A stretch of DNA of 64,000 nt from Nemertoderma westbladi (taxonomy: Eukaryota; Animalia; Xenacoelomorpha), in assembly GCA_032718475.1 (NCBI GenBank), contig JAUCBJ010007168.1:1-64000 (forward strand), read 5' to 3'. Position 1 is the stretch's first letter; every line of letters begins with the position of its first letter. This document shows positions 3,446 through 64,000 of this stretch, one piece after another. Made by a program: the position numbers and the translations under genes. The notes under the pieces are model-generated. The model had not been told where the DNA came from and did no database searches. It saw only the letters and a program-made list of their open reading frames with translations.

Positions 3446-5224
3446 CTATGTCTCCGTCTCGAGTTTGAAATGTTCTATGAAGTCATCCCTCAGCATAAAC
3501 TTTTTTACTTTGCCAACTACGGTAACGGGAAATTCATCTACAAACATAACATACTCTGGGACTTTATATAACGCTAAACGTTCTTTCACAAAATTCTTAA
3601 CTTCCTCTTCTGTCATATCCTCTCCATCTTTCAGTTGCACTGCTACTGCGACCTTCTCACCCAAACGTTTATCAGGTACGCCCACCGCACTAGCTTGATG
3701 GATTTTTTCATGTCCCAACAGGACATCTTCGATATCCAATGAATATACATTAGCACCTCCTCTGTTAATAACGTCTTTTATCCGACCCGATATCGAAACA
3801 TACCCATTTTCATCAAGTGACCCAAGATCACCCGTTCTCCACCATCCATTACAATCAAGAGATTCTTTCGTTTTCGCATCATCTCCCCAATAACCAGGGA
3901 AGAGAGTATAACCACGGGAACAAATTTCACCGATAGAATTAATCGGTAGGATTTGGCCTTCTTTGTCAACAATCTTAATTTCCATTCCTTCCAAAGGATA
4001 ACCATCATTCTTCATTCTCGTTTCGAAAGTGTCGTCGAAGTGTCCAATTGAGATTATGGGAGACTCGCTCATTCCATAACCGCGGACGGCTTTCTGTATG
4101 TGCAATTTTTCGACGGCATCTCTAAAAAATTGTTCGGCGATTGGAGCGGTTCCTATGATGGCGCCGATTAGAGAGGATACGTCGTAGTCCCGGTAGTGCT
4201 GCAGCATATCGACGTACATCGCGGGCGCCGCAAGTATCATGGTGCATCGTTCGTCCTGCACAGCTTGTAACGAGGCTTTGGGTTCGAATAACGCGGAGGG
4301 GACCACTATACGGTGTCCAGTGAGTGGAGGCAACACCATGCCGCCCATGTACGCCGAAGCGTGGAAAAACTGTACTGGAAGCAGTGACGAGTGTCTGATC
4401 TCGTCGCCACCAATAGCATGAGATAGACTATATAATCCTTGGAGTAGATTCTGGTGGGTTGTAGGAATGACTTTAGGGTCTCCTGTTGTACCCGAGCTGA
4501 ACATCACGACTACATGGTCTTCTGGGTCAATAAATTTCTGCATTTCTTGAACTCTATCTCGAGATGTTGATCCTCCAATGTTCTTTATCTCTTCATACAA
4601 GAAGCACCCTTTCCGTTTCTCATTGTCCATGAAGATAACGTTTTTTAAACTGGGGATATTTTCTGATTGTAATTCTCCCGGTTTGCATTCCGGAAGTTCT
4701 GGACACACCATACACAACAAATCGTAATAATTGATAATTTTAACACCTGTGTCAACTAGAAGGGCCTTCAAGTTGACCTTACTGAGTGTTTGTTTGAGTT
4801 CCAATGGCTTGAACCCCGGGTTTACATTGACAGAGACTAACCCAGCTCTCGTAGCTGCATATGATCCCACCATCCATTGCCGCGAGTTCACCCCGTATAT
4901 TCCGATTCTATCTCCTCGCTGCAGTCCGAGTTCTACGAAACCACTAGCTAGTCTGTCCGCTTCCTCTAAGACTTCTCCAAATGTGACTCGGTCGCCGGTA
5001 TGACAGAAAACGAATGCTTCAACATCCCGATCTTCTATAGCTCGGCTTTCCAAAACGCTCCCCAGCGTCTGCCTGAGGTAGGGTGTCGCTTGCGGTCTGT
5101 GAATGTAACTCAATTTTAAGGGATTTTCTTTATGAAATTTTGGAAGAACAGATTTTTCAGAGCTGTAAAACCTTCTGTAATGATGGACGTGGAGGTTTTT
5201 AAATAAAGGCAAGAAATTAGCCAT
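3446..5224 (-). CDS. ACSF2: Medium-chain acyl-CoA synthetase, ACSF2-like (AMP-binding family), intronless
   Basis: 592-aa ORF with adenylate-forming motifs FSSGTTGDPK, GYGMSE, WRTGDLG, GRIKD and C-terminal GKVKK. The basic N-terminus resembles a mitochondrial transit peptide. Confidence 0.85.
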   Translation of the reverse strand: MANFLPLFKNLHVHHYRRFYSSEKSVLPKFHKENPLKLSYIHRPQATPYLRQTLGSVLESRAIEDRDVEAFVFCHTGDRVTFGEVLEEADRLASGFVELGLQRGDRIGIYGVNSRQWMVGSYAATRAGLVSVNVNPGFKPLELKQTLSKVNLKALLVDTGVKIINYYDLLCMVCPELPECKPGELQSENIPSLKNVIFMDNEKRKGCFLYEEIKNIGGSTSRDRVQEMQKFIDPEDHVVVMFSSGTTGDPKVIPTTHQNLLQGLYSLSHAIGGDEIRHSSLLPVQFFHASAYMGGMVLPPLTGHRIVVPSALFEPKASLQAVQDERCTMILAAPAMYVDMLQHYRDYDVSSLIGAIIGTAPIAEQFFRDAVEKLHIQKAVRGYGMSESPIISIGHFDDTFETRMKNDGYPLEGMEIKIVDKEGQILPINSIGEICSRGYTLFPGYWGDDAKTKESLDCNGWWRTGDLGSLDENGYVSISGRIKDVINRGGANVYSLDIEDVLLGHEKIHQASAVGVPDKRLGEKVAVAVQLKDGEDMTEEEVKNFVKERLALYKVPEYVMFVDEFPVTVVGKVKKFMLRDDFIEHFKLETET

Positions 5225-6099
5225 GTAGTTCTTGAAATTATTAGGCGGATTAGTGATTTTACTAAATTTATTTTAATAATTATTTGCTTTAAACTGGATA
5301 TTGGTTATGACATTTTCAAGAAATTATCTTATATATTTTGATTGATATTGATGTTGTTGGTCAAAGTTCGATTTATATAAATAATCCTATGTTATTACCT
5401 ACATTGTATGTCATTCATTAATAATAATTTGCTATTTACCAACATTTTGATAAGCCCATCACCCCGTGCCATATAGGTATCACCTGCTATATAGTTACAA
5501 CGCCTAGTGGGTAGCGTTTCACCTTGCTGGTTCCTGGTTGTTCTCTTTTGTCTTTCAAACCAATGTAACACAACACGAGTGGGGCCTTCGTGCAGCAAAA
5601 GCTGCAAACCATCTTGCGAACAATTATAATTATACTATGGCTAGTTATATAGGTCTATTCTGATATTGGCTTCCGACAATATTATGGCTTCCGACACACA
5701 CAGACTTTTGGAAAATGGCCGTAGTATATTTATAACAGTTCGCTGTTGACTCGCAGTTTTGACTCGCCCCACATTGTCAGACAATCTAACTACTTAGCTT
5801 CAACTCTCTAGCTCTAAAAAAACAAATAATATAAATAATATTTTGTTGAATGAATGTACGGCCCCCTAATAATTCTAGACCGTTAAGGTTATGAATTCGT
5901 CGCTTTTTATTTAGTCCGCTAACTAAATATATTCTCATACTAGAAATATCCGCCAAGTAAAAAAAAAACACATGATTTCATATCCTCTTTGGAGCACCCG
6001 TATGAATGGGTCGTTAATAATGTTGTTATATTTGTAGTAAAATAATATATAAAATGGTTTAGTTTATAAGTCACTGAAAAAATTCCAAACGCGCCGAGT

Positions 6100-23639: not shown

Positions 23640-26170
23640 AATTGAACCAGACGTTTCGATATATTACTTATATAATTTTCAATGGAATATATGTAAAACA
23701 AAATACAAATTATTCTAAATACTAAAGTACACTAGACCGGTACACGGTATAACAAGTAAGCTGAATTAGTAAATATAGAGGTAGGTACATTACAATATAC
23801 ACCAGCAGTACAAATAGAACCATACAAAAATATAACAGGCTAGACGTAGAGTAAAACTCTATTTAGACAAAACCTACAGTATGAATCTACAATACAGGAA
23901 TTATTCTAAAACAAATAAAGTGGAAAAGATGTATCCTGTATGTTAAGTGTCGGTCTGGTTTCTGTTATTAACAGACTCTCTTTGATTAGTAAGTGAAGTC
24001 AGATGCAGCTCTACCTATTGGTTTAAAGTCAGTGTAGCAGAATGGTTGATCCGTTTCTATAGAGTGATCGCAGGACCGCGGAATGTGATTGGGGTTTGAC
24101 AGGTTTCTCTGTCCGGACCGACTTGGCCAAGTGCTCATACACTCTCACCTTAAAGTGGCGTTTTGACTTACCAATGTAGGTAGCGGAACAGCTACCGCAC
24201 GTGAATTTATAAAGGGTGAGTGAGCGTAATGACACTGGCAGTCGGTCTTTAAAAGAAAACATGTCAGACAACCTACAATCAGGCTTAAAATGAATTTAAA
24301 ATCGCACTGTGAAAGGCACTTGTTAAAATTTTTAATCGCTTTTGAAGTAAAGTAGAAGTGGCTCCTAAGAAGGGTAGGACTACGTATACTGGTTTTTTAC
24401 TTACTGTGTATGTACTACAGACGGTTTGGGACGAACAAGTTTAACAATTAGTTTATCTGTCAGCCATGATAATAGTTCTCGAGGGTACCCATTTTTAGCT
24501 AATAATTCGTGTAATTGTCCTAAGTCACTGTTAAATTTTGTCCAAGATGAGCAGATCATAAAGGTACGATGTAACAAGGTGACTACTAATCCTATTTTAA
24601 ATTTGAGCGGTGTAAATGAATCAAATTTTGAGTATAAACCTGTGCACGTAGGCTTCCGGTAAACGGAGGTTGAGAGGCCTGAACAAGTTTTAGTTATAAG
24701 AATATCTAAAAAAGGCAATGTCCCATTGCTTTCAAGTTCCGAGGTAAATTCCAAGCAACGATGTTGTGTATTTAAAAATTGCAAAAATAGATCGGCTTGG
24801 CTGCGTTCTTTAAATAATAAGAAAATGTCATCCACATATCTTCGGTACAGAATTGGTTTTATACTTGAAGGACAATTTTCAAGCCAACGTTCCTCGTGGT
24901 GACTAAGAAAAATGTTAGCTAGGAGAGGACCAAGAGGGCTACCCATAGCTACGTCTACCTGTTTATATTTGACCCCATTAAAAATAAATTCAGATTCCTT
25001 AATGGCTAGTTTTAGTAGGCTCTTAAACTGCTTACGGTTTAGACCATCGACCTTGTCTGTGTTACGGAACAAATGAGTAAGAATAATGACGATAGTCTCG
25101 TCCAGTGGAATATTAGTAAACAGCGATTTGATATCGAAGCTTACCATGTACATGGTATTGTCATTTGGAATGTCAGTTATTTCCCTCACAAAGGAGAATG
25201 TGTCTCTTACAGTATATTTGTTTTTGTTAGTACCCAGTGACCCTAACCTTTTTAACAAAAATTTTGCCAGATTATAACCAGGCGTGCCGATGGCGGATAA
25301 GATTGGGCGAATGGGGCAATCCTTTTTATGCACCTTCGGTAGGCCATATAAAATCCCTGGATGTGTTCCTACTGGCAGAAGAGTTTCGAGTTCCTTGTTT
25401 GAAATGTCCCAAGTTTTATGTAAACCTTTGAGGAGTTTCTTAAAACGTTCCTCTAACCGAATTGCTTCCCCAACCCACTTTTCTGGACAGTCGGATACAC
25501 GTTTAAATTTACTTTTATCGTTTAAAATTCCTAGTACCTTATCTATGTATGTGGTCCTGTTTAAAATTACTACACCATTTCCTTTATCAGGTTTTAGGAT
25601 TAGTATGGACTTATCTTCTACTACTGATTTCCGTGCCAAAAGTTCCTGTTTAGTAAGGTTGGGCTGTCGTTTGTCTGAGTTATAGCTGTAAAAGGAGGTG
25701 AACGCTGTATCCCGAATGCGATTCTTCACCAGATCCCGTGGGATTCCGCCGTTGGTTGGGAGATTGCGCAGTATGCGGTACAGTTTTTCGAAAGGTAACA
25801 TAAAGTCTGCAAACCGTAAACTTCGAGGTTCAGTAGCAAATCGAAGCCCCCTGGATAGTAAAGACTTCTCAGTTGCCGTTAACGTCCTAGATGAGTAGTT
25901 GAAGATTACTGAGTCCGGGTTTATCGAGTTTAAACTGTGTTCTCTAGTAAGGTTTCGGAGTTTCTTTGCATGTATTACATCGTGCCGAGAACAGCGACGA
26001 GTAATATCTCGTTCACATTCTCGTGTAACAAACATGTAATCCAGATAGGATAAGACAGATTGGAGGCCATCTCGCCGTTTAATCAAAGAGCGTTCAAGGC
26101 GACTAATCTGCAACCGTTTGCCTGCGATCTCTGCTTCCAGGAGTTTGCGTTGATGGGTGCGATAGTCATA
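23640..26170 (-). mobile_element. Penelope-like retroelement (RT + GIY-YIG endonuclease), frameshifted
   Basis: ORF 24401..26113 has KPDKGNGVV, LYGLPKVHK, PIRPI, SFDIKSLFTNIP, AMGSPL, YRRYVDD, PFLDI and VYRKPT. ORF 24029..24271 has the GIY-YIG segment YKFTCGSCSATYIGKSKR. Confidence 0.92.
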
Positions 26171-27276
26171 ACTACAGTAACAGTAACTATAATACAGTAA
26201 CTCAACAGTACACCACTACACCACTACGGTATACCACCAACAGTACATCAATGTGCGTACTATTTACAAGTTACCCTTCACAGCCACTGCTTCATACTAG
26301 AAGGTTTAAATAAATTTCCTCATGTGTGATGACTATGTTATGTAGTCCATTCGTTACTTTCGCGAACGCAATGTTGCGTAATGATACACTTTGCCTCAGA
26401 TTTCTGGTCAACGTTGTCTTATCTGATTGTCGCTCGATAGTCGGCCGAAATTTAAGAAGAATTGCCACTAAAGTTTCTTAACAAGATCTCCGTGATGTAT
26501 ATTGGCGTCCCATGTGAAAAGCCCTGGTATTTAACTCCTGCTGATCAAGTGTGGTGCGTTGATGTTAGCATTTGCAAGTACAGTTTAAAGCTATTTATTA
26601 ATTTAAATTAATTTATTTATTTATTATTTATTTATTTTAGATTTCCGCCTTATGTTGATTTAGTGAGTGCTGTCCCAGTCATTTCTCATTACCAGTTATA
26701 TTTATTCATTCTGTGAGTATTTACATAATTTTGTGCTTTCTATACCGGTGAATTTATTTACTTGTTTGTATATATTACTCTCTGTACCCATATATTTCGT
26801 ATATAGGAGTAATAATATACAGTAATAAATAATAATATATAGATTTAAGATACATTACATAGTATAATGTACCCCAGTAACATACCGAATATACACCATG
26901 TCCTGGAATATAGAGTCGTTATTGAGGCGTCACCAACCTCCTAAATTTTTACACAATGCCTTTTTTTTGCAGAATCGCACCTTTTGCCGAAACGCAACGA
27001 CACCGATCTATAACACATCTATTAATTATCTTTATCTATAACCGAAGCTCAACTTCACTTTTACTTTCTGTTCAAAGGCGCAATATGCGATAGTTAAAAA
27101 ACAATACAGATATCATCATTCAAATAAAACAGACCAAAACAAAACAATACCAATAAAATAATTTAGGCTATTACAATGTACAGTATTTAGCTATTTACAA
27201 AATGTGTAATAAAATTCAAGCTAAATTGCTCGTTAAATAATTAAGTAATTAATAAAAAAAAAATCGCCATTATCGT

Positions 27277-50507: not shown

Positions 50508-51293
50508 ATGGCTGCTGTTTTAAAGCATATCGAGGTTCAAGATTTTAAATCCTATCTTGGGAAGCAGGTTATTGGTCCCTTTAAACAATTTACTGCAATT
50601 ATTGGACCAAATGGAGCAGGTAAGTTTAATTATCTGATTATGTAGGCCTACCTGTAACCTTAAATGTAATCTGATAATTATTACTGTATTAAGAAAAAAT
50701 CTACGAACGTCAGGAACGTATGTTTACGAATTAAGGGAAAGGCGTCTGTATTATAATGTGGTCGCTTCATATTTTCTTTGTTTGTAGGTAAGTCCAATCT
50801 AATGGACGCAATTAGTTTTGTGTTGGGGGAGGATACTAAACTACTCCGATGTACCCGGGTCAAGGATCTCATACACGGGGCCCCTATAGGTAAACCTGTG
50901 GCCACTAGAGCCCATGTCACAGCCGTGATTGAGCAAGAAGATGATTCCGAGTTGCGGTTCACTAGAACCATCGCCGGTGAGTCGCGGGAAAGTATTTGTG
51001 TAATGCTGAAAGGTAAATATCAGCATCTAACACAGCCAGACAGCACATTAAAATGAAAAAAAAATGGACAATCGAACAGACATAATTTAATTGCGATTGG
51101 GCTGTTTATGCTTACCCAAAATATTGTCTGCATTTTCCTACTCGGTAGGCCTAGTCTCTTACATGGTACCTTTTTTTCAGGCCAGGGAACAGAATACCGA
51201 ATCAATAAACGTATCGTTTCGTATCAGGATTACAGCAAGGAGTTGGAAAGATTGGGAATTCTCGTCAAAGCAAAGAACTTCTTGGTGTTTCAG
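50508..51293 (+). CDS. SMC1: Structural maintenance of chromosomes protein 1 (cohesin), exons 1-3; the gene continues beyond the window
   Basis: Exons 50508-50619, 50788-50976 and 51181-51293 with GT-AG introns splice in frame: [52 protein letters not shown]...DLIHGA...[14 protein letters not shown] (Walker A GPNGAGKS). Confidence 0.95.
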
Positions 51294-51415
51294 GTAGGAA
51301 TCATTTGGAATATTAATACCGGTATCAATTAATTATGTCTTTGGATGATCAACTCCATAACAAATGGGAGAGAAAAGTGAATTCGTGAATTTGAGTTCTA
51401 AAAAATGTTTGATTG

Positions 51416-51870: not shown

Positions 51871-52200
51871 CTTTCAAAAATAATAATTTTTATTATTAAA
51901 TTGTTACTTTATCGCTCGAATATACCCCAAAATCGGGAGAAAAAGTTTCACTATTTTCCCTAGGGAAAAAAAGTAACCCATATGATTCATTGATTTCACA
52001 TTTTTTTCCGGCGAAAAAAGTGAAATAAAATATTTTTCGTGGAATTTCTTAAATTTTATTAAATATGTTGAAACAGCACCGAAGTAGAAAAGGTTTGCAC
52101 GAGATTTGAGCAAAATCCATTCACACACTTAAAAGTTATTGCAAATTTAATGTCTGCAAGGCGAACTCCAAAACAGAACTCAATATCCAATATTGGTTTA

Positions 52201-53667
52201 TGTTGTTAAGCGGTTCTCTAGTTACGTAATAAATATTCCAGAACACTATATTATTTTAACATTGAGTAAGGCAGCATAGCATCAAGAGTTGAAGAGTACA
52301 ATATAATTACAATAGCAGTAACTATGGAAGCAATATAGTAAAATACTGCAGTTCAATTTATTTTGTAACAATATATCGCTTTATATTTTATTAACGAATT
52401 AAGCAACAAAAAAGTACCAATTTAAGAATAATAATTGAAGAGACAGCAACAATACCTGCAATATCCTACTGTAAAGTTTGTGAATCAAATCATAAATCCG
52501 ACCTTCTCACCAAAACAGTAAACTCCAAGTAAGCGAATATATTGCAGTATCGATCTCTTATGACCGGTGAGGCAGAAAACAGTCTACGAGCAGACAAACT
52601 TCGATAAAACAAAATCCCGCGCAGCGAATCCTAAAATCAGGCTGACTCGCTGACGGACTAAGGGGCTCGTATACTTTGCCGCGGTGTGATTTATATGGTT
52701 TGGTCAAAGGGACGCTAGCTAGGTACAGAGGCAGAGATTTGGAGATGTCTAACTAGCGAGCAAAGTGCAGTAAGGACGAAAGTTAATTTTATATATTTTG
52801 AGGTGTAAATAATTTCTAACGCGCGTGTGTTAATTCTGAACGGTCAAAAGCAGTTTTGCTCCTTCACATATATAATTACTGGGTACGGTGTGCATTTTAC
52901 GAATATTCTAATTTTGTAACTTGTAGGTCCAATACTCACGAATGATAAGGTTCCTTCCCCTCTTGCGTATTTCCAGGACTCAAATTCAGGCATAAGGTTA
53001 ATACTACACCCAGAATTCGGCAATTTTAGGTACCAGGTCCCTGATACTAAGAAGAGATGTGTTAGTTTACTACTGTAGGCGTACGGGTACTAATAGCTAT
53101 CCTGGCTCCTATCTAGAATTTTAGTCACCCAGGTAGTCCGGGTAACTTCCTATTAGGGCGTTGGCGGGGACACGGTAGATGTTAGTATATCCCTGATAGC
53201 CTCAATTTATTTGCGCCTAGTACGTAAACTGCCCTACCGCCTGAACGGTACAATCCTAATTCAGGTGAAAACACAATAACCCTCCTAGCCTACAAGTTCT
53301 GATGTAATGGACACCGTTGTACGGCAAATAGTCACAGACGCACCTGTACTTAGCAAGAGTTAAGCGTACAGTTTGCTGCACCCTAACCAATTTGTATGCC
53401 TTGTACCGGTGTGCCTACGTCCTATCTGCGTACTAGTATCTGCTCTCTCTCCCTCCCCCCGTAGGAATATGAAGGTCTACTGCGGTTTTTCCTGAATCAA
53501 GACAGTACAGTCCCTTTTTGATGTAATTTTAGGCTTACAGCGTGTCACTACGTCTACCTTTTGATCTTTTGGTCTTACACTTAGGTAGCAAGGATCGAAC
53601 GCTGTCTAACCTTTCAGGCGATGGGCGAATAACTCTAGATAGTATTGCGGGTTGTCTCTCGTCTACA
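52201..53667 (-). repeat. Putative 3' LTR of a second LTR retrotransposon, with adjacent PPT remnant
   Basis: Minus strand reads GGGGGAA|TGTAGAC...TAACAACA, with TATAAA at ~52691-52696 and AATAAA at ~52390 and ~52360. The partner LTR is not in the window. Confidence 0.5.
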
Positions 53668-53676
53668 TTCCCCCGA

Positions 53677-55195
53677 TGTTCCCGTTCATTGCTGCGGCCC
53701 GATCTCTAGCTGGCCATCCTGTCCCTTAAGTTTGTTCACCGTAGTGAATCCATAGTAAAACAGATAGAAAAGCTGAGAGAATATTCTGACTTTATTACAG
53801 AAGATACAATTATAATACAATGTAATCTGAGAATAAACTAAGCACGACAGAATATTGATAAGATAATCTGAGAAAGATTGAGATATAAGATATAGTGTTG
53901 ATAACAAATGAACAAATCGCACCTTTATATACTAAATTTGTGCCGCAATCAATCGAGAAAATTCTCGATTGTTCTATAGATTCTAACAAGGTTTTAAAGA
54001 TAGCTATTGGTCCAGCTAATATATAACTTGCACGACATTGGTTACAATCAAATAACTACAGCCTCATTGGTACAGACAAATGCAATTAATTTGTAGCGGT
54101 TAATTTAAATGAGTTGAAATTCTGCACAAAAAATAATTCGCACTTACTAGGATTCGAACTCAATACCTACTACACATATAATTTCCAACGCTCTACCGAC
54201 TGAGCTACTGAACCACTTGACCGATAGATGTACAATATGATAGTACCAATACGAATGAGGACTCAAAGCAATCTTTACAAAGTTAATCCGAATAAAATAT
54301 AAATTTTGAAAATCCACGGCATTTAGGGAATATAATTCTATACCGCTCCATGAAAACAGGATATTATCGTGCATAAAATATACGGTTTTCACCAATAATC
54401 AATCAAACTATAGAATACTTAGGGCGTACTTACATATTTACAATTAAATTTCAAACAATACTTCCTTTCTACGTAATGATTCGATACAAAAATAATTACA
54501 AATTTAAACTTTACGTATTTTAGGCTTTACTAAGTAAGTACAATATAAATCTAAATTAAATTCACCAATATAAATCTATTGCATCTCAATATTGCATAAA
54601 TTCAAACAATTACAAATACAAATAAATGAAAACAATAAGAAAGGCTCGCGAGTCTTCCATCTACTATTGCATCTCAAATATTGCATAAATTCAAATAATT
54701 ACAAATACTTTCGTACCTAAATGTAGATTGCATAAGTTTGGAATAATTACAAATATGAGTCTTTCTGAGCACAAAATTTTCTATCTATAAAACTTTCTAA
54801 ATACAAAATATAACACTTTACAAATGAAACTATAAGAAAGGCCCACGAGTCTTCCATCTACTCTTACTTTCTATTTCACTGTAAATACAAATACTGCTTA
54901 TAAGATATAAATTGCATAATATTCGGAACAATATAAATTGCATAAGTTCGGAATAATATAAATTGCATAAGTTTTGGATAATTACAAATATAAAATATAA
55001 ATTCTTACTAAATATAAGTCGTACTAAATACAGATATAAGCTGCTTTCTAAATTTCATAAATTCGGAACAATACAAATTGCATAAGTTCGGAATAAGCAC
55101 AAATATAAAATATAAGTTTTACTAAATTTTCTAAACATAAAACATATAATTCAAAATAAATCACAAATTCACAAGAAAGGCTCACGAGTCTTACG
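53677..55195 (-). repeat. Putative 3' LTR of the BEL/Pao element
   Basis: Purine tract AAAAGGGAGGGCAAGGGTGGA just after the extra ORF, then CGTAAG (TG mutated to CG?). Three CCAAT boxes (54006-54010, 54037-54041, 54066-54070), TATATAAAG 53923-53931, AATAAA 53791-53796, and a GGGAACA end at 53677. Confidence 0.6.
54128..54214 (-). ncRNA. tRNA-like RNA polymerase III unit inside the LTR
   Basis: A box TAGCTCAGTCGGTAGAGC, B box GTTCGAATCC and a T6 terminator ~17 nt downstream. There is no proper acceptor or anticodon stem. Confidence 0.55.
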
Positions 55196-55274
55196 TCCAC
55201 CCTTGCCCTCCCTTTTATCGCTTAGTTGATCGAGCCCTGCCGCGTCCTCGAAAACTGCGCACAGGTGACTTTGC

Positions 55275-58200
55275 TCACGATATGGGACTAATGGGGCGAA
55301 TCACTGGTTTACTTGGGACGTTGAGAGACGGTGCTACTATTTCCTCGCAAATTCGTCTATTTAGCATCCCAAAACCTCGACCGATTCCTCGTGACCGATC
55401 AGTTGTCACTACAGTTGGTAGAACGTCTGGGAACGCGCGAAAGGCGGACGACGCAGACCCAAGAGTAGCTTGCGCCCCCTGTTGATCAGCTGGTGTATGT
55501 CCCGATCCTCCTACTGGTTCTCTTGGAAGTGATACCGTATCCCGAGTAACTCGAATAGTCGGCTCAACTCCCTTGCGTTCTTCTACATTAATAATTTTCT
55601 TTAATTGTTGGCCCACCTTCTGGACCCGTATGATCCTACCCTGCCCGTCCTCCCGAGGGTGACGTGCAGACGGCGCAACCGGAGTGGCTGGTATATTTGT
55701 CGCCTCTAGGACCTCCTCTTCCTCGAATACGCTCGCTCGTATACGTTTATGGTAAAACGCGGCTCGGTACGCCCATGCGACGGTTAACCAAGCTCCTTTA
55801 TTCCGCTTTTCAGTTCGGAAACGATCGAATTCACCATACGTAATGCGATTAACGACTTTCTGAAAATTCCACGTGTTTTTGTTATCCGGGTGAATCTGTA
55901 GTAGATACTCGCGCACCACTCGGAATCCGCTGTCGTGGGGCAAAATATCAACAACCTCGATAAGTTCGTCATATTGGGGCATAGCGGAGATATATCCTTC
56001 CGACATCATCGTCTGGGGATTTACCGCCCAAAATCCGAGATGCGCTCTCATCGGAAACCGTCTTCTCTGTGCCGATACATGTTCGTCGGCCAAATCCTCC
56101 CACTCATCAAATAACTTCCTCACGAGTTTTACAGATTCGTGTTCATAAGGTATGTCTCTTAGTTGGCATTCAGATGCTCGATGTCCCTTTATATTGCAAT
56201 AAGTACATTGGGCCATAAATCTCCAGCAAGTATAAAAGGTATGAGACCCTTGATCCCCACACCATCCACAGATTAGCTGAGTCGTAGTAATGTGCTTTCC
56301 ACTGCACTTTGCCATATGATGTCCAGCGACGCCACATTTACTACACATCGTATTGGCAGGGTACCACACTCGTTCGTATATAAGATCTCCAATCGGTCGA
56401 GCGCTTCCTCCCATACTATAATCGTAATCATCTGGGTCTATGGGTTGGTAGGTTTCTGAAGGTTGTATACAAACTATAGCATCTGTTGCTTCAAGTTGTC
56501 GAATCTCCGTCTGAGATTTCTTCGGGAGGTTCCTTTCTATCTCAAGAAGTTCCTCTAAAGGATCGTCAGTGATCGTAGTAGTTACTTCGAATTCATCACC
56601 AAGGTGACCGATAGGCGCGCGCGTCTGCCGTGATTCATCCGTAATTTCCACGATACGTTCTCCTTCATAGGGTAACAATGTAAACATAGATGGTCTTTCG
56701 ATAAGAGATCCCGCACAGCGAAGATACACGTCTCGAAATATACTAAATCCTGCTCGAGTAAAGGCATTACACTGAGCGTCGGAGTTGTAGAAGGGTTCAA
56801 GGAATCGTCTAAACACGTCGGTACGAATTCTCCCTTCCATGTAGAACGTATGATCTTCTCCGAGACAAAGTGGATGTCTTTTGAGAGTCCGAGACACAAT
56901 GTCGGCGATTAGGCAAACATTCACTGACGACTCTATTGCTAAATAATATTGTAAGACCGCTCTTGGAGGTGACGTAATAGCCCAATACACGCATCCTCTC
57001 CATTTAAGCTGTGATTCAAACTCACTCATATCTGGAGTATCACCTTCTCCATAAGTTTCAATATACTTGTTTCTCTTGCCTTCCTTATAATCCCAATTGA
57101 ATAACAGGTAGGAAATGTATCCAGTTCCAGTCTTCTGAGTATTATACTCACGAAAATATCCCTGTTCTATAGACCACAGGATAAGAGGTCGAGTGTCGAC
57201 GTATGGTGTCGGTAGTCGGTCATCGCTGTCCGTCATGCCGGCGAAGTCGCTAATTAAATCCTCCCTTACTCCTGATCCAACCTTTACAACAGTTTTATCT
57301 AAAATCATGTTTCTTACCATCTTCGGTAGCATTCTAGCGTCGATATTACAAGCTTGGTCCATCTTCTTTACTATATCGGTGATAAGATGGTGTCGCTTTG
57401 TATTCGCTGGAGGTATCGGCATTCGTTTGTCGCTCCTCTGTCTACTGAAAACGTGCAGGACTCCGTCCGCCGCTCTAATCTGTATAGTCTTAGAAGTCAA
57501 ACTCTGCTGATGACTGCCGCCCTCGTTATCGTAAAACATGTAACCGTTTTCCTGAAACGATCTAAACGTCCTATTCCATTCATCCAACAATTCTTCCGAA
57601 GGTTGCCAAATCTTCTCTATATCCTTATCCTCATCGAAACGAATAACCTTACCTCGCCAATCTGCGGCAATATCTGTATCCGACTCGAAGGTTCCGGTTC
57701 CAATCCATAAACGAATCGTCTTGGTCAGATATCCTTTCAGATTACTCGGAGCTATATCGGCACCAGCTCTATCCAGTTCCTTGAAATCTTGAATATGAGG
57801 TGGAACGTTGTACACGACCTTTTGAGTAATATGTCTACGTAAATCATATATCTTACTCATATCGCTGAAAACAACTGCAGGAAGAAACTCCAAGTTTGAA
57901 ATGATTTCTGGATGATCCACGATGGGTATTTCGTACGTCGTATCCTGTCGGACTGGTATACTAATAGGGAAATTGAGTGTCGTACTCAATGGTTTCGTAG
58001 CTGAAGTACTATACGGTTGCATTTCTCTTGGCCTCTCCGGGGATGCAATCTGTAGTCTCTGAATAACGTTTTGAGCAAAGTTTATGCTCTCGAAAACTTC
58101 CGGTGTCATCTCCTTAGCTGAAGTTTGATCGTGTGACGTCCAATGGCAAGGTAGGCTCGCGAGTCTTCCACCCCATTCTTCCATCTCACCTTTCTCGAAA

Positions 58201-58940
58201 GCCTTGTAGGCTCTGTATAGGCTAAGAGCTTCTTTCTTTTCGCGGGTTGACTGATTCGCCTCGTCCAGCGTAAGTTCAAATACATCGGGTTCAACAACCT
58301 TAGGTGGGTAAATGACAGTTTCTCCCGCCTTTGGTCCGGTCATAGCAAATGAATGATATGGATTCGATAAAGGATACCCTCCTTCCTGGTAGCGTAGTTG
58401 TTGATGATTCGAACACCTCGCCAATATCGGTTCGGGATTTTCCTTATTCAAACGCATCGGAATCGCATTTCGTTGTTCGCGCATACAAGAACCGCATTGA
58501 TAATAAAGTTTATAAACTGAAAATGCTTCCTTGGTTTCTCTATCGTCCCCTCGAGTTCGTCTGTAAAGATGCATTCCATTGAATTCATCGCGTACCGCGG
58601 GCATAGGTTCGTGCGCCTTTAGGTATTGCATGGTATGATACAAACGACTAATTTCAGTATCGGGGTCTTCGCTAATGTCTCCCGTATCACACAAAGCATC
58701 GTACGGGTAAAGTTCATTGAAGGTTTGGCGCAAACTTTCGATTCTTTCGTTTAATGCGTTTTGCCTTCTCTTTAATACATTCGAGTCATATTTAGTTCTC
58801 GCGAGTTTCGCTGTACTTTCCGATAATTCTTTTATACCAAATATAGTATAATCCTTGGCTCCAAATCTTTCGAATGGCGCTGCTGCCTCCTCTTGGATAT
58901 CATATCCCCATCTCGGCTCTCCTTGTATCCCTTTCTCCAT
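55275..58940 (-). CDS. Extra ORF of the BEL/Pao element: DEDDy (WRN/RNase D-like) 3'-5' exonuclease domain plus three zinc knuckles
   Basis: 1221 aa, uninterrupted. ExoI FYDNE followed by TIQI, ExoII LDKTVVKVGSGVRED, VDT, and ExoIII-like W...QYYLAIE. Knuckles CSKCGVAGHHMAKC, CGWCGDQGSHTFYTC and CTYCNIKGHRASEC. No signal peptide or TM segment seen. Confidence 0.75.
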   Translation of the reverse strand: MEKGIQGEPRWGYDIQEEAAAPFERFGAKDYTIFGIKELSESTAKLARTKYDSNVLKRRQNALNERIESLRQTFNELYPYDALCDTGDISEDPDTEISRLYHTMQYLKAHEPMPAVRDEFNGMHLYRRTRGDDRETKEAFSVYKLYYQCGSCMREQRNAIPMRLNKENPEPILARCSNHQQLRYQEGGYPLSNPYHSFAMTGPKAGETVIYPPKVVEPDVFELTLDEANQSTREKKEALSLYRAYKAFEKGEMEEWGGRLASLPCHWTSHDQTSAKEMTPEVFESINFAQNVIQRLQIASPERPREMQPYSTSATKPLSTTLNFPISIPVRQDTTYEIPIVDHPEIISNLEFLPAVVFSDMSKIYDLRRHITQKVVYNVPPHIQDFKELDRAGADIAPSNLKGYLTKTIRLWIGTGTFESDTDIAADWRGKVIRFDEDKDIEKIWQPSEELLDEWNRTFRSFQENGYMFYDNEGGSHQQSLTSKTIQIRAADGVLHVFSRQRSDKRMPIPPANTKRHHLITDIVKKMDQACNIDARMLPKMVRNMILDKTVVKVGSGVREDLISDFAGMTDSDDRLPTPYVDTRPLILWSIEQGYFREYNTQKTGTGYISYLLFNWDYKEGKRNKYIETYGEGDTPDMSEFESQLKWRGCVYWAITSPPRAVLQYYLAIESSVNVCLIADIVSRTLKRHPLCLGEDHTFYMEGRIRTDVFRRFLEPFYNSDAQCNAFTRAGFSIFRDVYLRCAGSLIERPSMFTLLPYEGERIVEITDESRQTRAPIGHLGDEFEVTTTITDDPLEELLEIERNLPKKSQTEIRQLEATDAIVCIQPSETYQPIDPDDYDYSMGGSARPIGDLIYERVWYPANTMCSKCGVAGHHMAKCSGKHITTTQLICGWCGDQGSHTFYTCWRFMAQCTYCNIKGHRASECQLRDIPYEHESVKLVRKLFDEWEDLADEHVSAQRRRFPMRAHLGFWAVNPQTMMSEGYISAMPQYDELIEVVDILPHDSGFRVVREYLLQIHPDNKNTWNFQKVVNRITYGEFDRFRTEKRNKGAWLTVAWAYRAAFYHKRIRASVFEEEEVLEATNIPATPVAPSARHPREDGQGRIIRVQKVGQQLKKIINVEERKGVEPTIRVTRDTVSLPREPVGGSGHTPADQQGAQATLGSASSAFRAFPDVLPTVVTTDRSRGIGRGFGMLNRRICEEIVAPSLNVPSKPVIRPISPIS

Positions 58941-59600
58941 AATTAGGGTGTAGTTACATAATCATTACTACTAGAGGGAATACAACAGAGTTTGTAGTTA
59001 GTTGTGAGGAGACGTGAGAGTTTCGTCTGCCCTTTGGGCTCGACAACGCTCTAACCTCCTACCCATAGCCTAAGATCTAGGGTTTCTTTAATGACACGCT
59101 GCTTCTTATCTAAAATTTTTTGCCGAAATAAAAACGAATTTTGGGCTAAACTGGCCGTGAGTCTAAAATACTCACTTTTTGATCCCAAACTATTATCAGA
59201 AAATAAGCAGTCAAGAATTAGTAATAAATATAGGGGAGTCTATTTTGACGTAACTTATTGAAACAAGACCGTGTAAAATTTAATTAAAATTTTAAGAAAG
59301 GCTCGCAAGTCTTCCTCTCTTGTTTCTCTAATTTTAAGTTCCACCCGACTGTACCCTGAAATCTATTCACTGGAGAAAATTTTTAAAAATTTTTCAAATC
59401 CAAATGGATTGTCTAAAATTTCGAAAATGTCTCAATATTGTGAGTTCCAAGTAGAATTCCATTTCTTATACCTACAAATCCCGCTCCTATGTGACACATA
59501 AGGGTACTACCCTCAATGTTCACATATAAAGACAATGGAATTCTACCGCTGTCCTTACTACGGTGTACAGGTACGTGGAAATCTATTTGTAAACTCCTAA

Positions 59601-62600
59601 TTATTTACTAATACTAGTTGGAGATTTGTAGTCTCCAGACTCATTACGAGTCTCTTCAAGAAGTACGAGACGTTGAGTCGGTCTGTCTACTGTACGACCG
59701 TCAATTGTCCGTACCGTCACAGTTCTTGTCACTCCATCCATAGATGGATGTGTGGCTAAAATTACACCTGTTATCCAGAAGCGTCTTTTTAGATTCACTT
59801 CCGCTAACAGCACGTGATCTCCCGGCTTTAATGCGCGGGTGTTATTGTACCAGTTTGTTCTGGCAGAAATAGAGGGCAAATAATGGTTTTGCCATATTTC
59901 CCAGAATTTGTTAGCCAGTAGTTTCGTGATTTTCCACGCTTTTCTACCGTAGCTGTCGCTTTCTATTGGAATAGAAATCGGCGTCAAAGTGGTCGGTGCC
60001 TGCATTAGCAGGTGTGCCGGTGTCAAAGCGAACTGAGATTGTTTGTCATCGGGTACTAATACTATTGGTCTAGTATTTAGTATTGCCTCGATTTCAACAA
60101 ACAATGTTGTCAGTTGGTCGTCTGTTAATATGTGGTTTACTGGAATGACCTTTGCCATGGCTGTCTTTATAGATCTAATCAATCTCTCCCAGACTCCGCC
60201 TCTCCAAGGACTATCTGGAGGGTTGAACTTCCAAACAATCTTGTGAGGTTGTAGTTCGTTCGAGATTTGATCATGATCTAATTTCTTAAAGGCTCTAGCA
60301 ATCTCATTCCGAGCACCAACAAAGTTTGTCCCTTGGTCTGAATACAAGCATTTTACTAGTCCGCGTCTAGCGATAAATCGCCTCAGTGCTAGTATAAACG
60401 CGTTGGTGGAAAGATCCATCACACGTTCAATATGAACTGCCCTACTGGACATACATGTGAAAATCAGTCCCCAGCGTTTTACTAGTATACGTCCACGTTT
60501 CGTATGTATGGGACCAAAGCAATCAATTCCAGTCTCTGTAAAAGGTGGTCTGAATGCTTGAAGTCGTGCTTGTGGTAGTTCACTCATTTCTTGGGTACCT
60601 ATTCTAGAATGTACCTTTTTACAAATAATACACGTACGTGTCACTGAACTTAACGCTTTACTGGGTCTAATTAATACAAATCTTGTACGTAAGTAGGAAA
60701 GACAGTGGTGTCTTCCAGCGTGTTTCAGATGTAAATGTGCGTCCAGTATCATTGCACGTTGTAGTTCGTGGTGTTGCGGTATTATTATTGGGTACCTAAA
60801 GTTTGTGTTAAAGTCAATGTTTTGAAGCCGAGATTTATGACAAAGTAAGCCATTATAAATAATCGGACTCCAACTCAGTATTGGTGACGACTTGATTGGT
60901 TGACCTTGATTTATGGATGTGAATTCGCGCGCGAAATATCGCAGTTGGTAATGGCGAATTAATTTAATCTCACATCTGTCAATCTCAGCCAATGTAAGTC
61001 GACGTGTAAAGTCACGTTTGCCTTTAACGTATTGTACAAAACGTACAATCCACGCTAATTTTCGGCAAACGTTTGTCCAAGAATCTGTTATGTTTACAAT
61101 ACGGTCGACATGAGTATTTGTGACGTCATCAGGTAAGTCAATTGAGATTTTGGAAGGTTTTGAATTACTAGAAGGGCCCACGGGTCCGCCGGTAGGTATT
61201 CCCTTGTTGACTGTTGATCCGTCCGGGTCTACAAGTAATTTGTCCTTCTTTGTCTTCTTACCTTGATTGTCGGTACTTTGTAAGTCGATCGTTAATGGTG
61301 GTTTGAACTCTATGGGATCAGTGGGTTTCGGTAAACTAATTTTTCTGCCGATATTAATCCCAGGTTTCACCATAGGTTGCAAGTTCGGTATGTCTCTTGA
61401 GCGCAAAGTAACACCTGTATTTACATTAGCGTAGGTACTACCCACATCTGTAATACATGAGGTTTCACCGTGGTTGCTCAAGTGTGTCAAAATTGATAGT
61501 TTGTCAATACAAGGCCGCTCCAATAGGGAAACTGCGGCTTTACTGTTAGTCGATAAATTACTAATGTCCGGTAGAACATTTTGTGATGTTTCTGACAAAA
61601 TGTCTAGTCGACTGTCTAGTAATGTGTCTGGCGATACGTCTGGTAACGTATCTGGTTGTTTGTCAATAGAAGGCCGCTCCAATAGGGAAACTGCGGCTTT
61701 ACTGTTTGTCAATACATTACTAATGTCCGGTAGAACATTTTGTGATGTTTTTGACAAAATGTCTAGTCGACTGTCTAGTAATGTGTCTGGCGATACGTCT
61801 GGTAACGTATCTGGTTGTATGTCAATAGAAGGCCGCTCCAATAGGGAAACTGCGGCTTTACTGTTTGTCAGTACGTTACTAGTGTCTAGTAGAATGTCTG
61901 GTTGACCGTCTGGTAACGTGTCTGGTTGACCGTCTGGCAATATGTCTGGTGTAGAAAGGCTCGCAAGTCTTCCTCTCTTGACCTTTGAAGTTATATCTTT
62001 CCATTTCGCCTTCGGTTTTTTCTTGAGTTTTGCCGCCGTCGTCCTTTTCTTTGTCTTCCCCTTTTTTGGTTTCTTGATTTCGGCGTCCTTGGGGATGGTG
62101 TTAGATTTGTTGTCGTATAGTGGCGGCCAATGTAGTGTTGAACCTTGTAAGAATTGTGGTCCGTGTTGCCAAAATTCTTTGTTCTCCGGTTTACAGAATT
62201 CCTCAGGCATCATTCCTCGCGACGCAATATCAGCTGGGTTTTGTGGTCCGGGACAATGTCGCCAATCCCCTTTTATTGAACGGTCTAGAATTTCCGCGCG
62301 ACGGTTAGCAACGAATGTCTTGAATTCGAGTGTGTCGTTGTTTATGTAAAATAAAACCAACGTCGCGTCAGTCCAATAAAATATCTGTAAACTCGACTGT
62401 AGTTCTGTCTGTATGAGGTTCACGATGGTGGTTGACAGGGTTGCGGCTTGTAGCTCGGCTCGTGGTGTCGTCATATACTTAGTAGGCATGGTCTTAGCCT
62501 TAGAAGTAATGAGCGAAACATCGAACTCGTCTGAGTCTACTTGTCTGCGCAAGTACGCTGCCACACCAAAACCGTTGTCACTGGCGTCAGAAAAACAGTG

Positions 62601-63287
62601 TAGTTCCAAGTTGTCAGGAAATGTACTTTGTAATGGAAAGTAAACCCTGGGTATGGAATAATCCTCTAGCGAAGATAATTCCGCCTCCCAGGTCTTCCAT
62701 AAGTCCACTTGGTCTGATGAGATCGGCTCGTCCCATGTTAGTCCATCCTTCCATATACTACGCATATAAATGCGGGCTTGCAGTATCACTGGACTGATGA
62801 ATCCTAACGGATCGAACAATCGGCTCAACTTTGACAAGCATGATCTCTTTGTCAGTGTGTTCTCTTGACTGTCCAGTCTCACTTTCACTCGAAAGTTGTC
62901 TGTGTTTGGGTCCCAAAAGAGCCCTAACACCTTAGTCGTCGGTAGTGGTTCGAACTCTAGGTCTATGTCACCACCTCCACGCTCAGTCGTCCCGAATGAG
63001 TCTACTAATTCGGCACTGTTTGAGGCGAATTTGGTGAGGTTAAAACCTCCGCCCGCTAAGCAGTCCCGTAATTGATGTGCTACTGTTGTAGCACGTTCTA
63101 CTGTGTCGCAACTCTGTAAACCGTCGTCTACATAAAAGTCACGCTCCACAATCCTAATTATCTCTGGGTCATACAGGTGTTTCTGATCCCTAGCGGCCTG
63201 CTTTAGGGCGTACATCGTGCAATTTGGGCTGTCTCTGGCACCGAAAACGCGAACTTGCATTTGGTAAGTCGCCGGTGGTAGACTTAA
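59601..63287 (-). CDS. BEL/Pao pol (RT C-half, RNase H/Pao A17 region, integrase); 5' part cut off by an insertion
   Basis: FYVDD, KVLGLFW, LFDPLG, LHCFSDAS, TPRAELQAA, FVANR, NPADIASRG, HH-CC zinc finger, GIDCFGP, SRAVHIE, FIARRG, SDQGTNF, WRGGVWERLIRSIK and LTPAHLL. Confidence 0.95.
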   Translation of the reverse strand, partial: LSLPPATYQMQVRVFGARDSPNCTMYALKQAARDQKHLYDPEIIRIVERDFYVDDGLQSCDTVERATTVAHQLRDCLAGGGFNLTKFASNSAELVDSFGTTERGGGDIDLEFEPLPTTKVLGLFWDPNTDNFRVKVRLDSQENTLTKRSCLSKLSRLFDPLGFISPVILQARIYMRSIWKDGLTWDEPISSDQVDLWKTWEAELSSLEDYSIPRVYFPLQSTFPDNLELHCFSDASDNGFGVAAYLRRQVDSDEFDVSLITSKAKTMPTKYMTTPRAELQAATLSTTIVNLIQTELQSSLQIFYWTDATLVLFYINNDTLEFKTFVANRRAEILDRSIKGDWRHCPGPQNPADIASRGMMPEEFCKPENKEFWQHGPQFLQGSTLHWPPLYDNKSNTIPKDAEIKKPKKGKTKKRTTAAKLKKKPKAKWKDITSKVKRGRLASLSTPDILPDGQPDTLPDGQPDILLDTSNVLTNSKAAVSLLERPSIDIQPDTLPDVSPDTLLDSRLDILSKTSQNVLPDISNVLTNSKAAVSLLERPSIDKQPDTLPDVSPDTLLDSRLDILSETSQNVLPDISNLSTNSKAAVSLLERPCIDKLSILTHLSNHGETSCITDVGSTYANVNTGVTLRSRDIPNLQPMVKPGINIGRKISLPKPTDPIEFKPPLTIDLQSTDNQGKKTKKDKLLVDPDGSTVNKGIPTGGPVGPSSNSKPSKISIDLPDDVTNTHVDRIVNITDSWTNVCRKLAWIVRFVQYVKGKRDFTRRLTLAEIDRCEIKLIRHYQLRYFAREFTSINQGQPIKSSPILSWSPIIYNGLLCHKSRLQNIDFNTNFRYPIIIPQHHELQRAMILDAHLHLKHAGRHHCLSYLRTRFVLIRPSKALSSVTRTCIICKKVHSRIGTQEMSELPQARLQAFRPPFTETGIDCFGPIHTKRGRILVKRWGLIFTCMSSRAVHIERVMDLSTNAFILALRRFIARRGLVKCLYSDQGTNFVGARNEIARAFKKLDHDQISNELQPHKIVWKFNPPDSPWRGGVWERLIRSIKTAMAKVIPVNHILTDDQLTTLFVEIEAILNTRPIVLVPDDKQSQFALTPAHLLMQAPTTLTPISIPIESDSYGRKAWKITKLLANKFWEIWQNHYLPSISARTNWYNNTRALKPGDHVLLAEVNLKRRFWITGVILATHPSMDGVTRTVTVRTIDGRTVDRPTQRLVLLEETRNESGDYKSPTSISK
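61500..61950 (-). repeat. In-frame 159-bp (53-aa) tandem repeat within pol
   Basis: AATAGGGAAACTGCGGC recurs at 61522, 61681 and 61840; the protein repeats SKAAVSLLERPSID... Confidence 0.9.
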
Positions 63288-64000
63288 CCCTATTAAACCC
63301 GGGGGGGGGTCAATATGACCCCCCCGTGGTTTTTTTATTATAATTCTGAAACAAACGCAGTTGGGAATCTGAAACTTTCTGACTTTTCCTAAAAATCTAT
63401 TATCTTCCTAGTAGTGAAAACCGTTTTCAAAAATATTGCGTACTTTTTGAGTTATAGCACCATTTTTTAACCCTACTTTTGGCACTTTTTTTGAGACGTT
63501 TTTTGAAAATTACATTTCATTAAATATGAATTGTAACATCTCTATTTTTGATTTACACCGGTTTTTTGGTGTTAGAAATTGGATGGAATTCATATAAATT
63601 GATTTAGAAATTTCAAACTTGTTTTTTTCGGTGGGTGCCAAATTTTGGTGCCAGCACCAAATTTTGAAATATGTCAATTTTGTAAATTGATTATTTGAAA
63701 CTTGTTTTTTACGCAATTGGGGTTTTTTGTGGTTCTGGATTCGATGAAATATATACGAGTTGCACTAAGCGTATCAAACTTGTATTTTTCGGTGCTGTGT
63801 GCAAATTTTGGTGCTAGCACGAAATTTTGAAAATCCATTCAATAGATAAAATTGCTTGTGACAATTTATTTCTTGCGTTTTAGAGGTTTATGGCTGTTCT
63901 GAATTCAATGGAATATATAATTATCGAACTAGACATCTCAAACTTGTATTTTTCGGATGTGGGTGCAAAATGTGGTGCCAGCACCAAATTTTGAAAACCA
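63288..64000. mobile_element. TTAA-inserted (piggyBac-like) non-autonomous element interrupting pol
   Basis: The pol frame is interrupted at TTAA (63284-63287), followed by CCCTATTAAACCCGGGGGGGGGTCAATATGACCCCCC and ~165-bp internal repeats (GGTGCCAGCACCAAATTTTGAAA). Confidence 0.7.

Follow-up and report, generated by a model that had tools for sequence, protein, structure and literature searches.

A reiterated 20-nt motif with hairpin potential in a BEL/Pao retrotransposon of Nemertoderma westbladi, a candidate RNA tag for CCHC zinc knuckles

The element and its coding regions

Contig JAUCBJ010007168.1 of the Nemertoderma westbladi assembly GCA_032718475.1 (positions 1 to 64,000, hereafter the window) contains part of a BEL/Pao long terminal repeat (LTR) retrotransposon, read from the minus strand. 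A 20-nucleotide (nt) motif is reiterated through the coding and untranslated DNA of this element. Its copies may fold as small hairpins, and they are considered here as candidate RNA tags for the CCHC zinc knuckles of a protein encoded by the element itself.

The pol gene (59601–63284, minus strand) comprises a distal reverse transcriptase (RT), RNase H and integrase, with a linker of ~330 amino acids (aa) between the last two. The Pao-type RNase H region (PF05380, E 1.5e-42) and, after the integrase, DUF5641 (E 2e-20) are both above cut-off. Relatives of pol number 557 at E ≤ 1e-20, the best being 40% identical. A 159-bp in-frame tandem repeat is present in 2.5–3 copies within the RNase H–integrase linker (61494–61970). 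The 5´ half of the element (gag, 5´ LTR and leader) lies outside the window; a second repeat breaks into pol near 63285 and so hides both gag and the 5´ LTR. This repeat (63285–64000, no strand assigned), unrelated to the element, starts at a TTAA site, has ~163-bp internal units and is presumably a piggyBac-like end.

After a spacer of 660 nt, pol is followed by an additional open reading frame, ORF3 (55275–58940, minus strand; 1221 aa), with a likely DEDDy-type 3´–5´ exonuclease domain at ~56900–57620 and CCHC knuckles at 56166–56345. A splice acceptor for ORF3 is predicted at 58971–59002 (minus strand) from a branch-point-like CTAAC, a pyrimidine tract and TAG. Further downstream, a likely polypurine tract (53668–53674, minus strand) stands directly before the TGT of a likely 3´ LTR (52437–53667, minus strand, TGT...TCA). 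No second LTR was found in the window and the LTR boundary stays inferred. The initial annotation had taken 55174 as the LTR start, which is probably wrong, a start at 53667 being the probable one. Given the purine tract and TGT at 53668/53667, the three left-hand motif copies most likely lie in a 1.6-kb 3´ untranslated region (UTR), and the likely LTR holds none.

Eight copies of one motif

The whole 64-kb window was searched with the pattern AGAAAGGCT-N4-AGTCTTCC, with up to three mismatches allowed. Six matches were obtained, at 54638, 54835, 55174, 58149, 59295 and 61953, all on the plus strand. Shuffled versions of the window gave a mean of 0.16 matches and at most two, and none of 100 shuffles reached six, so that the six copies listed in the initial annotation are real, share one strand and lie far above chance. 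When each copy was scored with a matrix built from the others, the six reached 29.3–37.0 bits, against a maximum of 9.5 bits in host DNA (104,872 positions).

The list of six was incomplete. The matrix built from all six copies revealed two more, at 56609–56629 (18.8 bits) and 61170–61190 (17.7 bits), in the same orientation and within the element, where 0.003 and 0.006 such matches are expected; the best score outside the element is 8.0 bits. The total is thus eight copies of one 20-nt sequence, all facing the same way, within one element. The ~52 kb of host DNA in the window contain no copy, and the earlier statement that the motif is absent outside the element holds within the window.

All eight copies are described on the minus strand, which is the sense strand of the element. 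Three lie in the likely 3´ UTR: copy 1 (54639–54658; loop CGCG, loop-closing pair U-A), copy 2 (54836–54855; loop CGUG, closing pair U·G) and copy 3 (55175–55194; loop CGUG, closing pair U-A), the last 80 nt past the ORF3 stop. ORF3 contains the diverged copy 4 (56610–56629; loop CGCG, closing pair G-C), in the linker that joins the exonuclease-like domain to the knuckles, and copy 5 (58150–58169; loop CGCG), which encodes GRLASL at aa 258–263. Copy 6 (59296–59315; loop UGCG) is in the spacer between pol and ORF3. Finally, the RNase H–integrase linker of pol carries the diverged copy 7 (61171–61190; loop CGUG, closing pair C-G) and copy 8 (61954–61973; loop UGCG). Copies 6 and 8 are identical over 28 bp, as had been noted before.

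A ninth candidate (60697–60716, minus strand) lies inside the integrase zinc-binding motif, with loop CCAC and closing pair A-U. It has 13 of 14 arm bases and all eight pairs, for which an arms-only scan expects 0.001 occurrences; however, its position weight matrix score is 5.9 bits with 1.4 matches expected, its model E is 0.82 and its loop is different. This copy is doubtful.

A descriptor, GAC-N-YGYG-N-GCC, was written after the copies had been seen, with the loop-closing pair left free. It matches eight times in the 64 kb, always within the element and in its sense orientation. Shuffled elements gave a mean of 0.017 matches and a maximum of one (300 shuffles), and unrelated loci totalling 3.0 Mb gave ten, two of these ten having a standard closing pair.

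Both coding copies known initially indeed read GRLASL. Nevertheless, this hexapeptide was rejected as a peptide motif, such as a cleavage site: four copies are non-coding, and the two added coding copies, at 56609 and 61170, encode RQTRAPI and GGPVGPS instead. Internal purine-tract primers were also considered, purines making up 0.55–0.85 of the 20 nt that precede the copies, and set aside because they leave the covarying pair unexplained. As a separate observation, the heptamer GTCTTCC, the 3´ end of the motif on the plus strand, has 8 of its 11 occurrences within the element. It corresponds to the miR-7 seed site as well, here in antisense orientation and with no 3´ pairing, probably by coincidence.

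Pairing within one strand

On the sense strand, G1, G5-A6-C7, the guanines at loop positions 2 and 4, G14-C15-C16 and C20 are invariant in all eight copies. The loop-closing pair varies but is always a standard one (U-A in five copies, and U·G, G-C and C-G in one each). Among unrelated sequences matched by the arms only, the corresponding pair is standard in 44 of 104, compared with eight of eight here; a permutation test gave p 0.036. The arms-only scan of viral contigs (24 of 64 parts, 120 loci) contained no retroelements and was used as a control. Furthermore, one stem pair has switched from A-U to G-C in copy 7.

The covariation score of the eight copies is 0.223, against 0.096 ± 0.032 after shuffling; two of 500 shuffles reach it, and it exceeds all six slid controls. 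When the ninth candidate is included and only one of the identical pair is kept, none of 500 shuffles does so. These shuffle counts are not probabilities, as the copies are related, and the signal comes from three cells in two diverged copies. Moreover, one stem column is unpaired in three of the eight copies and another in all eight. The evidence for pairing within one strand is therefore good but thin, owing to the relatedness of the copies and to the three cells that carry the signal.

The kept closing pair and the switch from A-U to G-C favour a single-stranded hairpin over a double-stranded DNA site. The latter was one of the alternatives in the initial annotation, as a site with a TCGCGA-like core, and it could take the form of inverted G-R-A-A-G-R-C half-sites, six bases apart around a CpG-rich core, bound by a dimeric host or element protein and serving as a distributed enhancer or anti-silencing mark. 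The motif is indeed a near-palindrome with CpGs, in an element with a CpG observed-to-expected ratio of 1.12 compared with 0.77 in host DNA, and one copy lies ahead of ORF3, reminiscent of the Sirevirus boxes ahead of env (PMC2829016). Yet all eight copies share a single orientation, the likely LTR has none, and TCGCGA occurs in just two of the eight. Covariation also links the two bases that adjoin the core, and recognition of a duplex does not call for this. A DNA site has thus been weakened and appears quite unlikely.

The broader idea of a reiterated cis-acting signal gains from the compensatory changes, in the form of a hairpin, although its placement in an LTR is probably wrong. Most variation had been said to fall in the tetraloop or to create a G-U pair; of the eight differences among the six original copies, six are in the loop or keep a pair and the other two break one. 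A search of positions 52000–64000 with the Rfam 15 covariance models returned a single match, outside the motif, with E 4.1.

Which strand folds

The hairpin proposed initially is supported by the compensatory changes in the two added copies. Two features point to the sense strand: the covariation term is −0.66, compared with −0.34 for the antisense strand, and the U·G closing pair together with six G·U pairs exists on the sense strand only, being mismatches on the other. In addition, the five loop variants are all C-to-U changes on the sense strand, and both loop guanines are spared.

The sense fold is, however, weak, and carries a feature that the initial annotation did not mention, namely an invariant A6·C15 mismatch in all eight copies. 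The consensus energy is −0.77 kcal/mol on the sense strand compared with −4.88 kcal/mol on the antisense strand, and individual sense hairpins range from 0 to −3.2 kcal/mol. In sequence context, the mean sense pairing probability is 0.00–0.16 for six of the eight copies and ~0.5 for two, whereas the antisense strand reaches 0.20–0.95. The C-to-U loop variants are ambiguous too, because CpG decay could hit either strand.

These values lend weight to a hairpin on the opposite strand, in an antisense transcript or in the minus-strand complementary DNA made by reverse transcription. There it would serve in pausing, processing or protein binding, with a C-R-C-R loop carried by an unbroken stem of 5–6 bp. 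Such a fold is the more stable one in every test; a G·U pair stands where the sense strand has the A·C mismatch, and the compensatory changes count on this strand as well. Nonetheless, the closing pair of copy 2 breaks there (C·A), the second stem column is unpaired in seven of eight copies, the covariation term is the lower one, and with DNA parameters the hairpin has only 0 to −1.7 kcal/mol. An antisense hairpin seems unlikely overall, and among the single-strand readings the sense strand is the more probable one by a fair margin, favoured by the covariation and the fixed loop guanines and weakened by the invariant A·C mismatch.

Placement and spread of the copies

The two pol copies, at aa 438 and 699, mark the edges of a linker with a median length of 327 aa; the same linker has a median of 22 aa in 110 relatives with both domains. 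GRLASL was found in none of 123 proteins compared. On both grounds, protein sequence does not explain the pol copies. In ORF3, one copy precedes the exonuclease-like domain and the other separates it from the knuckles. As the coding copies are in linkers specific to the element, the motif is written at places that the proteins tolerate.

The copies of the 3´ UTR cluster are spaced by 197 and 339 nt, compared with 1435, 1540, 1146, 1875 and 783 nt elsewhere; the ninth copy, if real, splits the 1875-nt gap into 1401 and 474 nt. Five of the eight copies lie 3´ of the predicted splice acceptor and would also be present on the predicted ORF3 mRNA, which disfavours a signal selective for unspliced RNA. 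The packaging or export suggested initially, if selective for the genomic RNA, is accordingly doubtful.

Several copies share more than the motif. Copies 1 and 2 are inside a 197-bp duplication, and copies 1 and 6 are 81% alike over 42 bp, with an AT-rich flank in common. Flanks common to some pairs (6/8, 1/6 and 1/2) suggest copying inside the element. In most pairs, by contrast, the flanks agree at 4–17 of 30 positions, the background level, compared with 13–21 of 21 within the motif. We infer that such internal copying multiplied the motif and that selection then kept it.

Recent template switching and local duplication could also have left the copies behind without any selection. The 197-bp duplication, the 42-bp and 28-bp similarities, the many joints in the likely 3´ UTR and the loop variants, all of them CpG transitions, are what such a process would produce. 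It would not readily produce strong motif matches beside flanks at background level, nor diverged copies that have changed in a pair-keeping manner, nor CpG changes confined to one strand. That the copies are unselected leftovers is very unlikely.

Variation of the element in sequencing contigs

Contigs from four public sequencing runs cover the element. Run X1 alone contributes 17,438 aligned contigs, 2,061 of them less than 90% alike, indicating a multi-copy family with diverged subfamilies. Two deletion forms of ~2 kb, 56656–58781 and 56768–58801, present in other copies of the element, remove the exonuclease-like domain and copy 5 and keep the knuckles.

The contigs also bear on whether the hairpins are recombination junctions, at which pausing and template switching of the reverse transcriptase would let the element gain or lose modules such as the pol linker, ORF3 or the exonuclease domain. 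Copies do bracket the pol linker (at the two aa positions given above), the ORF3 cassette and the exonuclease-like domain, and a loose contig end at 59282 continues with letters of the 3´ UTR flank. However, none of the 15 joints listed, out of 171, is a motif-to-motif joint, and both large ORF3 deletions end away from motifs. Linkers are also, quite simply, places that tolerate insertion, and the loose end at 59282 can equally be a cross-aligned 3´ UTR copy. A role as junctions is highly improbable.

Around copy 6, the variation in 59200–59420 stems in part, at the loop site, from cross-aligned 3´ UTR copies, and run X5 has no contig aligning to this interval. One diverged contig (59249–59414) has eight substitutions in 166 nt of non-coding spacer, while diverged coding contigs differ by 16–19%; another contig, 81% alike, stops inside copy 5, at 58163. 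The low spacer divergence and the contig end in copy 5 would hint at local conservation if the contigs belong to one subfamily.

The depth of run X4 is unlike that of X1 and X3, with an at least 10-fold excess over the 3´ part of ORF3 and the UTR (53585–56750). Close to an AATAAA at 53796, ahead of the LTR, the excess falls off, and a contig of this run has a loose end of 15 T at 59390. X4 may be an RNA library with internal poly(A) sites; the run type was taken as DNA by guess, and the contigs cannot tell.

Searches of viral contigs and metagenomes returned no related loci. A motif scan of metagenomes (35 of 64 parts, 117 loci) gave single matches only, without a second copy and without pol or ORF3 homology.

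ORF3, an exonuclease-like protein with zinc knuckles

The three CCHC knuckles of ORF3 are at aa 866–925, with Pfam zf-CCHC below cut-off. Among 1.84 billion representative proteins, only three matched ORF3, and the exonuclease-like part is common to just one of them, P0122, the sole member of its cluster (pairwise E 6e-10). No ORF3 homologue was found among 7,996 and 6,152 further candidates. P0122 is a 558-aa protein on a 7.5-kb contig, with complete DEDDy-like motifs and three knuckles. Its alignment with ORF3 spans the D-x-E motif, the KVGSG-x3-D motif, the knuckles and the C-terminal tail; copy 5 lies upstream of this shared part.

The motifs of such exonucleases are named ExoI, ExoII and ExoIII. 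For ExoI, DNE of ORF3 (aa 471–473) aligns with DTE of P0122, and for ExoII the sequence KVGSGVREDL is aligned as well. The ExoIII motif Y-x-x-x-D is absent from ORF3, which has Y-L-A-I-E where P0122 has Y-L-R-G-D. Given this E in place of the last D, the ORF3 exonuclease may be inactive or a variant.

A weak NCBIfam DnaQ match over ExoI (E 0.03) is far below cut-off, and Pfam has no match for the exonuclease-like domain. Sequence searches of the PDB gave only sub-threshold nucleocapsid (NC) knuckles, and PHROGs gave nothing. The Atlas gives leads only, with two features (0.84 and 0.87) for knuckle-bearing exonucleases of PF01612. The Atlas model of P0122 reaches a TM score of up to 0.73 (by target) against PF01612 clusters, under the bar of the tool, and structure predictions have pLDDT values of only 31 and 29. 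Taken together, ORF3 is likely a DEDDy-type exonuclease, or a pseudo-nuclease, with knuckles.

Other features of the window

A tRNA-like sequence with A- and B-box-like motifs (from 54140 to 54215 or 54235, minus strand), below the default ARAGORN threshold, lies in the likely 3´ UTR. It is spanned in two runs by an 81%-alike contig (53945–54235), so that it may belong to the family as such instead of being a single insertion of a short interspersed element.

In the host part, the intervals 1–2102, 24401–26215, 3446–5272 and 50757–51332 hold LINE-type and Penelope-type RT remnants, an intronless acyl-CoA synthetase-like ORF and SMC exons; the names of the RT remnants and of the acyl-CoA synthetase-like ORF were assigned by eye. 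The element appears to sit among the SMC exons.

A candidate tag and its reader

We propose, with about an even chance of being right, that the copies are dispersed binding tags for CCHC knuckles on the sense RNAs of the element, with ORF3 as the first candidate reader and Gag as the second. The proposal starts from what is directly seen, that is, the copy number, the orientation, the confinement within the window, the covariation and the location in linkers and untranslated DNA.

Each copy would fold as a small hairpin on the sense RNA, with a Y-G-Y-G loop read by zinc knuckles, the exonuclease-knuckle protein of the element being the more likely reader and Gag the other. Binding would place loop guanines 2 and 4 in pockets of the knuckles, much as in complexes of retroviral NC, with the invariant A·C mismatch perhaps as an additional feature for recognition. 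Once bound, the protein would hold the weak stem together. Spaced every 0.2–1.9 kb, ORF3 protein could coat the RNA, build a ribonucleoprotein and protect or route it. Genomic RNA and the ORF3 mRNA, whose splicing is predicted, would thereby both be labelled as belonging to the element.

Besides the thin covariation and the poor sense fold, several points weigh against these tags. With gag outside the window, the reader is not assignable. Changing UGCG to GAGA in Rous sarcoma virus (RSV) did not reduce specific Gag binding in vitro (PMC5035970). The deletion forms devoid of copy 5 and the exonuclease-like domain occur in three of the four runs. Within 59200–59420 only three sites show substitutions at 1% or more, one of them being a loop pyrimidine of the motif, and the flanks are equally quiet. 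Moreover, the viral contigs and metagenomes held no DNA of a relative carrying the same ORF.

A more ambitious version, tentative and on balance doubtful, is that the element would own a matched reader and tag. A captured exonuclease-knuckle protein would recognise a cognate hairpin every 1.2–1.5 kb along the RNAs, the hairpins being clustered in the 3´ UTR of the mRNA that encodes this reader, as an MS2-like operator that tells element RNA from host RNA. This would be the first concrete substrate for a retrotransposon DEDDy ORF3. The element pairs a 20-nt candidate ligand with a 60-residue candidate reader. If the proposal is true, the pair would be a compact orthogonal RNA tag.

Comparison with known systems

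To our knowledge, no RNA recognition signal has been described for BEL/Pao elements. Literature searches found no such motif in a BEL/Pao element, though supplements of papers might list such motifs elsewhere. Dispersed packaging signals are known from single-stranded RNA viruses (MS2 and satellite tobacco necrosis virus), in which many small hairpins with the same loop run through coding RNA. Here, by contrast, just eight copies of near-identical sequence are found in an LTR retrotransposon, as candidate binding sites.

The closest parallel in the loop is retroviral. The NC of human immunodeficiency virus (HIV) binds guanines in the second and fourth positions of the loop, the HIV-1 loops being GGAG in SL3 and GGUG in SL2 (PMC7599994), and RSV NC binds the UGCG tetraloop of SL-C (PMC5035970). 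The copies described here likewise have a short stem and G at loop positions 2 and 4 in all eight cases, two have the loop UGCG, and the same element encodes CCHC knuckles. Unlike them, the retroviral tetraloops are single, lie in the 5´ leader and are read by the NC of Gag, whereas here eight copies extend from pol to the 3´ UTR, with an invariant A·C mismatch and a predicted location on a spliced mRNA. A Psi-type signal, in the 5´ leader and selective for unspliced RNA, does not describe the copies in the window, all of which are in pol or downstream.

Regarding ORF3, the bdelloid LTR retrotransposons Juno and Vesta have an ORF3 with DEDDy-like exonuclease motifs (Rodriguez, Kenefick, Arkhipova 2017; PMC5408684), whose activity was not shown in that description; the words "stem-loop" and "hairpin" are absent from its main text. 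As in Juno and Vesta, the extra ORF follows pol and has DEDDy-like motifs. It differs in its BEL/Pao host element, its 1221 aa, its three knuckles and the E for the last D. In Caenorhabditis elegans, the LTR element Cer1 has an accessory protein, CERV, with an action on the RNA of the element (PMC10309623). In this it resembles what is proposed for ORF3; the main text of that paper contains none of the terms "stem-loop", "cis-acting" and "response element".

Sirevirus RM boxes have a CGG-CCG core and form a cluster close to the promoter in the LTR (PMC2829016). Like the present motif, they are palindromic, CpG-rich and repeated in an LTR retrotransposon, and some of them precede its third ORF. 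Here, however, the likely LTR (52437–53667) is without a copy, the core is different, some copies are coding, and one orientation and covariation are found.

Finally, Egalitarian reads stem-loop localization signals, including the ILS of the I factor, and two stem-loops per RNA raise its specificity (PMC13186709). Its binding to imperfect stem-loops involves a domain with exonuclease homology, a likeness to what is proposed for ORF3. Egalitarian is, however, a host protein that recognises long, bent stems without a common sequence, whereas the element of N. westbladi combines a short conserved motif with a candidate reader that it encodes itself.

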